Source: Escherichia coli
GTDB lineage: Bacteria; Pseudomonadota; Gammaproteobacteria; Enterobacterales; Enterobacteriaceae
Direction: 5' to 3' (one strand)
Assembly (NCBI RefSeq): GCF_045037415.1
Contig: NZ_CP173438.1
Length of the DNA: 64,000 bases
Part shown: one piece after another, positions 5,401-12,932 of the stretch
How the letters are laid out: every line of letters begins with the position of its first letter
Position numbering within the stretch: the stretch's first letter is position 1
Notes under the pieces: generated by a model
Seen by the model: only the letters and a program-made list of their open reading frames with translations
Databases searched by the model: none
Told to the model about the DNA's origin: nothing
Position numbers and translations under genes: made by a program

Positions 5401-6774
<1,374 letters not shown>

Positions 6775-6787
6775 GCCTCAAATCAGT

Positions 6788-6815
6788 GCCGGATGGCGAT
6801 GCTGTCCGGCCTGCT
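6788..6815 (+). terminator. Candidate purB terminator / REP-like hairpin (GCCGGATGGCGATGCTGTCCGGC)
   Basis: GC-rich inverted repeat 14 nt after the purB stop followed by a T-rich stretch; weak U-tract. Confidence 0.4.
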
Positions 6816-6864
6816 TATTAAGATTATCCGCTTTTTATTTTTTCACTTTACCTCCCCTTCCCGC

Positions 6865-6882
6865 TGGTTTATTTAATGTTTA
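6865..6882 (+). promoter_or_regulatory. PhoP box (direct repeat TGGTTTA-N5-TGTTTA) in the phoPQ promoter
   Basis: Sequence TGGTTTATTTAATGTTTA about 60 bp upstream of the phoP ATG; matches the (T/G)GTTTA-N5-(T/G)GTTTA PhoP-binding consensus known for phoP autoregulation. Confidence 0.75.
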
Positions 6883-6942
6883 CCCCCATAACCACATAAT
6901 CGCGTTACACTATTTTAATAATTAAGACAGGGAGAAATAAAA

Positions 6943-7614
6943 ATGCGCGTACTGGTTGTTGAAGACAATGCGTTGTTACGTCACCATCTTAAAGTTCAGA
7001 TACAGGATGCTGGTCATCAGGTCGATGACGCAGAAGATGCCAAAGAAGCCGATTATTATCTCAATGAACATTTACCGGATATTGCGATTGTCGATCTCGG
7101 ATTGCCTGACGAGGATGGTCTGTCACTGATTCGCCGCTGGCGTAGCAATGATGTTTCACTGCCGATTCTGGTATTAACCGCCCGTGAGAGCTGGCAGGAC
7201 AAAGTCGAAGTATTAAGTGCCGGTGCTGATGATTACGTGACTAAACCGTTTCATATTGAAGAGGTGATGGCGCGAATGCAGGCATTAATGCGGCGTAATA
7301 GCGGTCTGGCTTCACAGGTCATTTCGCTACCACCGTTTCAGGTTGATCTCTCCCGCCGTGAATTATCTATTAATGACGAAGTGATCAAACTGACCGCGTT
7401 CGAATACACCATTATGGAAACGTTGATACGCAATAATGGCAAAGTGGTCAGCAAAGATTCGTTAATGCTACAACTCTACCCGGATGCGGAGCTGCGGGAA
7501 AGCCATACCATTGATGTACTGATGGGACGTCTGCGCAAAAAAATTCAGGCACAATATCCGCAAGAAGTGATTACCACCGTTCGCGGCCAGGGCTATCTGT
7601 TCGAATTGCGCTGA
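6943..7614 (+). CDS. phoP: Two-component response regulator PhoP
   Basis: 223-aa [43 protein letters not shown]...; OmpR-family receiver plus winged helix. Confidence 0.97.
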
Positions 7615-9074
7615 TGAAAAAATTACTGCGTCTTTTTTTCCCGCTCTCGCTGCGGGTACGTTTTCTGTTAGCAACGGCAGCAGTAGTATTGGTGCTTTCG
7701 CTTGCCTACGGAATGGTTGCGCTGATCGGTTATAGCGTCAGTTTCGATAAAACCACGTTTCGGCTGTTACGTGGCGAGAGCAATCTGTTCTATACCCTTG
7801 CGAAGTGGGAAAACAATAAGTTGCATGTCGAGTTACCCGAAAATATCGACAAGCAAAGCCCCACGATGACACTAATTTATGATGAGAACGGGCAGCTTTT
7901 ATGGGCGCAACGTGACGTGCCCTGGCTGATGAAGATGATCCAGCCCGACTGGCTAAAATCGAACGGTTTTCATGAAATTGAAGCGGATGTTAACGATACC
8001 AGCCTCTTGCTGAGTGGAGATCATTCGATACAGCAACAGTTGCAGGAAGTGCGGGAAGATGATGACGACGCGGAGATGACCCACTCGGTGGCGGTAAACG
8101 TCTACCCGGCAACATCGCGGATGCCAAAGTTAACCATTGTGGTGGTGGATACCATTCCGGTGGAGCTAAAAAGTTCCTATATGGTCTGGAGCTGGTTTAT
8201 CTATGTGCTCTCAGCCAATCTGCTGTTAGTGATCCCGCTGCTGTGGGTCGCCGCCTGGTGGAGTTTACGCCCCATCGAAGCCCTGGCAAAAGAAGTCCGC
8301 GAACTGGAAGAACATAACCGCGAATTGCTCAATCCAGCCACAACGCGGGAACTGACTAGTCTGGTACGAAACCTGAACCGACTGTTAAAAAGTGAACGCG
8401 AACGTTACGACAAATATCGTACGACGCTCACCGACCTGACCCATAGTCTGAAAACGCCACTGGCGGTGCTGCAAAGTACGCTGCGTTCTCTGCGTAGTGA
8501 GAAGATGAGCGTCAGTGATGCTGAGCCGGTAATGCTGGAGCAAATCAGCCGCATTTCACAGCAAATTGGCTACTACCTGCATCGTGCCAGTATGCGCGGC
8601 GGGACATTGCTTAGCCGCGAGCTGCATCCGGTCGCCCCACTGCTGGACAATCTCACCTCGGCGCTGAACAAAGTGTATCAACGCAAAGGGGTCAATATCT
8701 CTCTCGATATTTCGCCAGAGATCAGCTTTGTCGGTGAGCAGAACGATTTTGTCGAGGTGATGGGCAACGTGCTGGATAATGCCTGTAAATATTGCCTCGA
8801 GTTTGTCGAAATATCTGCAAGGCAAACAGACGAGCATCTCTATATTGTGGTCGAGGATGATGGCCCCGGTATTCCATTAAGCAAGCGAGAGGTCATTTTC
8901 GACCGTGGTCAACGGGTTGATACTTTACGCCCTGGGCAAGGTGTAGGGCTGGCGGTAGCCCGCGAAATCACCGAGCAATATGAGGGTAAAATCGTCGCCG
9001 GAGAGAGCATGCTGGGCGGTGCGCGGATGGAGGTGATTTTTGGTCGCCAGCATTCTGCACCGAAAGATGAATAA
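7614..9074 (+). CDS. phoQ: Sensor histidine kinase PhoQ
   Basis: 486-aa ORF overlapping the phoP stop (ATGA); histidine kinase motifs ([12 protein letters not shown]) and periplasmic sensor domain. Confidence 0.97.
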
Positions 9075-11795: not shown

Positions 11796-12932
11796 ATGGG
11801 ACAGAGTAAAAAATTGAATAAACAACCGAGTTCGCTTTCACCGCTGGTGCAATTGGCGGGAATTCGCAAATGCTTTGATGGTAAAGAGGTCATTCCCCAG
11901 CTGGATCTGACTATCAACAATGGCGAGTTCCTCACGCTGCTTGGCCCTTCTGGCTGCGGTAAAACAACCGTTCTTCGCCTGATTGCAGGTCTGGAAACTG
12001 TTGATTCCGGACGCATCATGCTGGATAACGAGGACATCACCCACGTTCCGGCGGAAAACCGCTATGTGAACACTGTTTTCCAAAGCTACGCACTTTTCCC
12101 CCACATGACCGTGTTCGAAAATGTGGCCTTTGGGTTGCGCATGCAAAAAACCCCCGCAGCTGAAATTACGCCCCGCGTGATGGAAGCCCTGCGGATGGTG
12201 CAGCTGGAAACCTTCGCTCAACGCAAACCGCATCAGCTCTCTGGTGGTCAACAGCAACGCGTCGCCATTGCTCGCGCGGTGGTTAACAAGCCTCGTCTGT
12301 TGTTGCTGGATGAGTCGCTCTCAGCGCTGGATTACAAACTGCGTAAGCAAATGCAGAACGAGCTGAAAGCGTTACAGCGTAAGCTTGGCATTACATTCGT
12401 GTTCGTAACTCACGACCAGGAAGAAGCACTTACCATGTCGGACAGGATCGTGGTGATGCGCGATGGTCGCATTGAGCAAGACGGCACGCCGCGTGAAATC
12501 TACGAAGAGCCGAAAAACCTGTTTGTTGCCGGGTTTATTGGCGAAATCAATATGTTTAACGCCACTGTCATCGAACGTCTCGACGAGCAGCGCGTACGCG
12601 CCAACGTTGAAGGCCGCGAATGTAATATCTACGTTAACTTCGCCGTTGAACCGGGGCAAAAACTGCATGTTCTGCTGCGCCCGGAAGACTTACGTGTTGA
12701 AGAGATTAACGACGACAACCACGCCGAAGGGCTGATTGGTTACGTTCGCGAGCGTAACTACAAAGGCATGACGCTGGAGTCGGTTGTTGAGCTGGAAAAT
12801 GGCAAGATGGTGATGGTCAGCGAATTCTTCAATGAAGACGATCCTGACTTTGACCACTCTCTCGACCAAAAAATGGCCATTAATTGGGTAGAAAGCTGGG
12901 AGGTCGTACTGGCTGATGAAGAACACAAGTAA
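11796..12932 (+). CDS. potA: Spermidine/putrescine ABC transporter ATPase
   Basis: 378-aa ORF with Walker A (GPSGCGKTT), ABC signature ([14 protein letters not shown]) and Walker B. Confidence 0.96.

Follow-up and report, generated by a model that had tools for sequence, protein, structure and literature searches.

The DNA analysed here (the window, 64 kb in length) is a piece of E. coli chromosome from a non-K-12 strain, in which the genes around the site of interest are arranged in the order rluE, nudJ, mnmA, hflD, purB, phoP, phoQ, roxA, pepT. The features that frame the purB-phoP intergenic region are as follows.

5404–6774, + strand: purB, the upstream neighbour (NCBIfam NF006764, 806 bits)
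6788–6810, + strand: GC-rich hairpin 3' of purB (terminator-like pattern in a scan; conserved in E. coli strains)
6943–7614, + strand: phoP, response regulator of 223 aa (NCBIfam NF008078 equivalog, 479.8 bits, residues 1–223 of 223)
7614–9074, + strand: phoQ, sensor kinase of 486 aa (NCBIfam NF008077 equivalog, 957 bits)

Both phoP and phoQ are intact, with full-length equivalog matches that exceed the curated cut-offs; the phoQ start overlaps the phoP stop, and the phoP annotation is also present in genomes matching the window. The purB-phoP intergenic region is AT-rich (40% GC), and an Rfam search of this region returned no known RNA family. Elsewhere in the window, gathering-score matches in Rfam were found to the RNase E 5' UTR element rne5 (52676–53012, + strand, 260 bits) and to the sRNA SraB (50647–50815, − strand, 208 bits), both of which are expected in this part of the chromosome.

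Upstream of phoP, positions 6865–6882 read TGGTTTATTTAATGTTTA, that is, T, GGTTTA, TTTAA and TGTTTA in that order, in exact agreement with the motif string and coordinates that an earlier note on this DNA had given for a PhoP box. The elements of the site and of the two promoters that surround it, P1 and P2, were placed as follows.

6847–6875, + strand: putative core of the constitutive promoter P2, TTTACC (6847–6852), 17 nt, TATTTA (6870–6875) (assigned from the published start and the sequence)
6866–6871, + strand: promoter-distal half-site of the PhoP box, GGTTTA (from the sequence)
6872–6876, + strand: 5-nt spacer between the half-sites, TTTAA (from the sequence)
6877–6882, + strand: promoter-proximal half-site of the PhoP box, TGTTTA, at the −35 position of P1 (from the sequence)
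6883–6894, + strand: linker between box and −10, 12 nt, one helical turn (from the sequence)
6895–6900, + strand: putative −10 hexamer of P1, CATAAT, −12 to −7 (assigned by its position relative to the published P1 start)
6907, + strand: P1 transcription start, A, PhoP-activated (published 36-nt leader, mapped onto the window)
6907–6942, + strand: phoP leader, 36 nt (published length; invariant in seven E. coli strains)

The repeat is in direct orientation on the + strand, which it shares with phoP and phoQ, and 60 nt lie between its end and the phoP ATG (6943), bearing out the claim that it stands at the expected distance upstream of phoP. When both strands of the window were searched for KGTTTA-N5-KGTTTA without mismatches, 6866–6882 was the only site. 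Under a null model of 100 dinucleotide-preserving shuffles, the perfect pattern is expected on average 0.01 times per window, a single shuffle containing any match at all. With up to two mismatches allowed, the window holds 23 matches (the true box included) against 13.4 ± 3.9 expected, a count reached by one shuffle in 100; the degenerate matches are somewhat commoner than in shuffles, and only the perfect site is informative. Further credible PhoP boxes were sought throughout the 64-kb window, and the search yielded only 2-mismatch matches (22 sites, for example 11808–11824 on the − strand, TGTTTATTCAATTTTTT).

The geometry of the site was read against the characterised promoter. Coornaert et al. 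2013 (PMC3536696), on the basis of Kato et al. 1999, describe P1 as the proximal, PhoP-activated phoP promoter with a 36-nt leader; the positions of P1 and P2 used here were taken from this later paper by other authors, whose constructs were built on the coordinates of Kato et al. 1999. Because the window is the same as K-12 from the box to the ATG, these published coordinates transfer directly, placing the P1 start at A6907 and the box at −41 to −25. Alignment to the characterised P1 promoter, the check that had been proposed for the site, therefore put the known PhoP box on these very positions and not elsewhere. In the E. coli K-12 phoPQ P1 region (Kato, Tanabe & Utsumi 1999, cited in PMC3536696), the box, −10, start, leader and ATG are identical to those of the window and the flanking genes purB and phoPQ are held in common; the window differs by a C>T change at 6859 and by a few substitutions just past the purB stop, none of them in the box or core promoter. 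The leader carries a Shine-Dalgarno sequence, AGGGAG, at 6929–6934, and a 66-nt phoP fusion spanning −36 to +30 is all that MicA and GcvB need for repression (PMC3536696).

The hexamer located 17 nt upstream of CATAAT is TTTAAT, which matches TTGACA at only 2 of 6 positions, and a sigma-70 consensus scan found no −35/−10 pair at P1, as expected of an activator-dependent promoter without a usable −35. This arrangement corresponds to architecture I of Zwir et al. 2012 (PMC3335776), in which a single PhoP box in direct orientation ends 12 nt short of the −10, overlapping the −35 position; such sites are predicted to act as class II sites, phoP is listed in the class, and one of the listed architecture I promoters has 11 nt instead of 12. 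The window displays the hexamer repeat, its orientation, the 12-nt spacing, the lack of a functional −35, intact PhoP and PhoQ, and the corresponding conservation footprint. We are thus nearly certain that 6866–6882 is the PhoP box of the E. coli phoPQ P1 promoter, serving class II activation and positive autoregulation. The site is already known, ordinary and in its expected place, and the earlier note was right to call it expected rather than novel, as it is the known box of P1.

In the mechanism that we favour, low periplasmic Mg2+ would cause PhoQ to phosphorylate PhoP, and a dimer of phosphorylated PhoP (PhoP-P) would bind the GGTTTA and TGTTTA hexamers head-to-tail, one helical turn apart. 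Because the box occupies the −35 position, 12 nt from CATAAT, in a promoter with no usable −35 of its own, PhoP bound there would be expected to recruit RNA polymerase as a class II activator. Transcription from A6907 would then raise the levels of both PhoP and PhoQ, closing a positive autoregulatory loop, with the basal level supplied by the weak constitutive P2, which would start at the last base of the box.

In E. coli, the constitutive P2 transcribes phoPQ in addition to the PhoP-P-responsive P1. A construct that mimics P2 transcripts starts at −61 from the ATG and has the sequence acccccataaccacataatcg (PMC3536696), which matches window positions 6882–6902 exactly and sets the P2 start at A6882, the last base of the box. 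The consensus promoter scan did not call the putative P2 core at 6847–6875. P1 remains PhoP-responsive once the P2 −35 and the region upstream are deleted, a result that agrees with a location of the P2 −35 upstream of the box, where TTTACC at 6847–6852 is the candidate; the putative P2 −10, TATTTA at 6870–6875, falls inside the box. This overlap with P2 core elements, along with the 40% GC of the region and the commonness of matches with up to two mismatches in the window, is what could be said for regarding the repeat as a chance product of AT-rich intergenic DNA, or as just the −10 region of P2, with no regulator bound. We consider such an origin very improbable, given that chance would produce a perfect match only 0.01 times per window, that the hexamers are kept across genera when the 5 nt between them are not (as befits a dimeric site and not a −10 element), that a constant 12 nt separates the repeat from the P1 −10, and that electrophoretic mobility shift assays (EMSAs) have been published on identical DNA (PMC5775216; bioRxiv 10.1101/516872).

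Since the P2 start and its likely −10 both lie within the box, PhoP binding may occlude P2 while activating P1. One might go further and propose that PhoP binds here chiefly to repress P2 by occlusion, a dual function that is compatible with P1 activation and that would follow from competition between PhoP and RNA polymerase over 6870–6875 and 6882. We think it unlikely that this is the chief role, for at high PhoP-P the response of P1 alone is like that of the full promoter, phoPQ is on balance induced by low Mg2+, and the feature that is conserved is the 12-nt phasing to the P1 −10. Activation of P1 from the box is thus the reading we retain.

Published binding and regulatory data come from several close relatives. 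The phoP box reported for Shigella flexneri 2a 301, tGGTTTAtttaaTGTTTAc (PMC5775216, Table 5), is identical to window positions 6865–6883, with no difference in the site although the host lineage differs. In S. flexneri, a phoPQ promoter fragment was shifted by PhoP-P in an EMSA; the authors also constructed a phoP::lacZ reporter plasmid to confirm regulation by PhoPQ, and reported autoregulation (PMC5775216). Similarly, the E. coli phoP promoter was shifted by the PhoP of E. cloacae, PhoP(Ecl) (bioRxiv 10.1101/516872). From these EMSAs, performed on fragments with an identical site, we infer that PhoP-P binds at 6866–6882. In Salmonella, deletion of the box in the phoP promoter produced the same growth defect in low Mg2+ as a phoP mutation (PMC2650801), and the phoP promoter of Salmonella enterica likewise has a single direct box 12 nt from the −10, with class II action and positive autoregulation (PMC3335776; Soncini et al. 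1995). The Salmonella loci in our comparison (L041 and L054) read GGTTTATTAACTGTTTA, with a spacer of TTAAC versus TTTAA in the window and a box-to-ATG distance of 62 nt versus 60 nt. By sequence identity, the K-12 P1 and Salmonella data predict PhoP- and low-Mg2+-dependent transcription at this locus, and the Mg2+-responsive autoregulation that the earlier note had read from the box is likewise to be expected in this strain. A different arrangement is found in Yersinia, where no box lies directly upstream of phoP and the PhoP-bound promoter is upstream of the preceding gene, y1795 (PMC2650801); phoPQ expression in Yersinia pestis is PhoP-dependent and induced by low Mg2+ (PMC2650801, Perez et al. 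2009). The window, unlike Yersinia, has the standard proximal box.

Members of the OmpR/PhoB family bind direct repeats with a periodicity of 10–11 bp, and the closest paralogues of PhoP score well against the PhoP sequence, so a repeat of this kind might in principle be recognised mainly by another member of the family, such as RstA or PmrA. We give this very little credence, as the hexamers are the exact PhoP consensus, the site has been both listed and tested as a PhoP target, and it is linked to phoP in ∼25 genera.

That linkage was established on 80 phoP loci from species-representative genomes, which were picked by the PhoP protein alone (91–100% identity, ∼25 genera). purB was within 640 nt upstream in 59 of the 80 loci, and 57 of these 59 had a box with at most two mismatches, in most cases 59–64 nt from the ATG. 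In Klebsiella and Pseudocitrobacter the upstream gene is a different one, and the box is still present. A footprint was derived from 65 unique box-bearing 72-mers aligned on the box. Information content averaged 1.63 bits per position in the distal half-site (GGTTTA in 43 of the 65 unique sequences) and 1.78 bits in the proximal half-site (TGTTTA in 57), as compared to 0.68 bits in the spacer, which occurred in 27 variants; the linker averaged 0.79, the −10 averaged 1.40 and the 25 nt upstream of the box averaged 0.37. The spacing from box to hexamer was 12 nt in 57 of the 65 unique sequences and 11 nt in four. At the level of sequence, half-sites that are kept around a spacer that is free to vary are the footprint expected of a dimeric direct-repeat site phased with the −10.

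Two loci, those of C. amalonaticus S646 (L021) and Intestinirhabdus alba (L075), have a perfect box at 187 and 211 nt from the ATG, respectively. Insertions of ∼125–150 bp lie between promoter and ATG in these loci, implying an unusually long phoP leader; L075 has CATAAT 12 nt 3' of the box, and L021 has a stretch AACATAAT.

Within E. coli, a 301-bp query running from the purB end to the phoP start was found in 5,425 of 5,426 complete genomes, with 100% identity to strains SK1144 and AH19E004 and 97.3% identity to K-12. Seven E. coli strains taken across the identity range differed from one another upstream of the box (just past the purB stop, in a T/C-rich tract and at the C>T of 6859), save for one linker site, C/A at 6892, which was the sole variable position downstream of the box. 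Accordingly, the 50-mer 6861–6910 was 100% identical in 4,053 records and had one mismatch in 1,371, and the 31-mer 6861–6891, which contains the whole box without 6892, was 100% identical in every one of the 5,424 records that it matched, representing 5,422 of the 5,426 genomes. Because megablast needs an exact word of 28 bases, a mutated box would give no match, and at most 4 of the 5,426 genomes could therefore carry one. Of the 5,427 matching records, a single one had an interrupted purB-phoP interval, owing to an IS1 insertion in strain GPT21-003.

This IS1 copy lies between purB and phoP (NZ_OY754834.1; L005, 2288–2985) at a point corresponding to window position ∼6845/6846; it ends ∼20 bp upstream of the box, abutting the putative P2 −35, and leaves the box, P1 and leader intact. 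The T at 6859 of the window is a lineage-specific change located 7 nt upstream of the box and within the putative P2 spacer; C occupies this position in the six other E. coli strains aligned, of which two carry an additional C in the neighbouring C-tract. Between 11 and 16 records labelled as plasmids also carry the purB-phoP interval. These are non-mobilizable, range from 90 kb to 4.9 Mb and contain chromosomal genes, and in most of them the match covers annotated purB and phoP; we rejected a plasmid location of the interval and regard these records as mislabelled pieces of chromosome.

For the window itself, the value of these results is one of annotation: the strain appears to carry the standard, intact PhoPQ positive-feedback circuit, and positions are now fixed for the box, for P1 and P2 and for the leader. 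PhoPQ controls Mg2+ homeostasis, envelope remodelling, resistance to acid and to antimicrobial peptides, and virulence. The comparative data add a quantitative footprint and indicate that the site is essentially invariant in E. coli.

The box is missing from some related genera, a property of those genera and not of the window. No box was found within 260 nt of phoP in 16 of the 80 loci. Three of the 16 simply lack a box; in the other 13, phoP is directly adjoined by a tyrosine integrase or by what is left of it, and the upstream gene is not purB. These box-less, integrase-adjoined loci are the following.

C. freundii complex: L015, L019, L024, L025, L028, L031
Lelliottia: L027
Enterobacter: L036, L038, L040, L047, L048, L057

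The integrase is a protein of 429 aa with Arm-DNA-bind_2 and Phage_integrase domains, of which only fragments are left in some loci. Its gene stands at the end of a lambdoid, Rac-like prophage, which sits directly upstream of phoP-phoQ-roxA-pepT (also in L090, L091, L093 and L096) and carries xis, recE/recT, cI/cro-like, replication, lysis and terminase genes. In these 13 loci phage-derived DNA has taken the place of the box and its 12-nt linker. Homology to the box-type promoter begins again only ∼10 nt before the −10 hexamer, and the prophage junction, as read from its sequence, offers TTCATA-17 nt-CATAAT as a plausible constitutive sigma-70-like promoter. In five loci (L036, L038, L057, L061 and L077) purB and phoP were both present in the fetched DNA, with a remnant of 340–900 bp replacing the box and linker, and no + strand box with up to two mismatches was found anywhere between the two genes. 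Two of these, L061 and L077, have purB upstream and ∼340–400 bp with short integrase-like fragments before phoP, without a box. The assembly behind L077 is labelled Chryseobacterium sp. 18061 and its purB-phoP locus is enterobacterial, being nearly identical to that of Citrobacter sp. 18056 (L061); it is probably mislabelled or contaminated.

Near-boxes on the reverse strand upstream of phoP in box-less loci, TGTTTATTNACTGTTGA, were rejected as regulatory sites, because in L025 the motif is inside the integrase ORF (138–1427), where it is translated in frame (...STVNKQ...), and in the remnant loci it overlaps stretches that still match the integrase. No plausible −10 hexamer was found 12 nt downstream of the near-box on the reverse strand of L057.

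A search for attP in a phage collection produced no close relative of the integrase, the best being IntR of Rac at ∼50% identity. Walking along contigs toward the far prophage junction led through a mosaic tail module, the last steps reaching prophages that end at a CSS-EAL gene, and neither the box nor the −10/leader block was found in the latter. The metagenome contigs linked to phoP probably do not extend far enough for this purpose. As a tentative proposal, which we hold to be possible and on balance doubtful, the stretch comprising box and linker could be a recurrent target of a family of Rac-like prophage integrases in related genera, such that the prophage can switch off PhoP autoregulation and the window would represent the unoccupied ancestral state. 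Prophage integration at purB-phoP was seen in no E. coli genome among the 5,427 matching records, and papers describing prophage integration next to phoP were not found in the literature searched. Kang et al. 2019 reported that the phoP promoter of the E. cloacae strain they studied has a putative box and is bound by PhoP (bioRxiv 10.1101/516872); the box-less state may thus be specific to certain lineages, or a degenerate site may remain. If confirmed, prophage-driven loss of the box in some Citrobacter, Lelliottia and Enterobacter could affect PhoPQ-dependent phenotypes, e.g., colistin heteroresistance.

The Enterobacter remnants also contain a gene of 130 aa between purB and phoP, divergent from phoP, which was located in two loci.

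L111, 1696–2088, − strand: 130-aa IraM-like gene (E. cloacae M-7, the same genome as L057)
L038, 633–1097, − strand: 130-aa IraM-like gene

A precomputed Pfam label identified its product as PmrD; we rejected this identity after hmmscan did not reproduce it at E≤0.01, and the E. cloacae complex is said in the literature to have no PmrD homologue. The N-terminal 77 residues of the product resemble the RssB anti-adaptor IraM, which was the best match among solved structures (PDB 8twd, E = 3.8e-5). The iraM gene of E. coli is one of those activated by PhoP.
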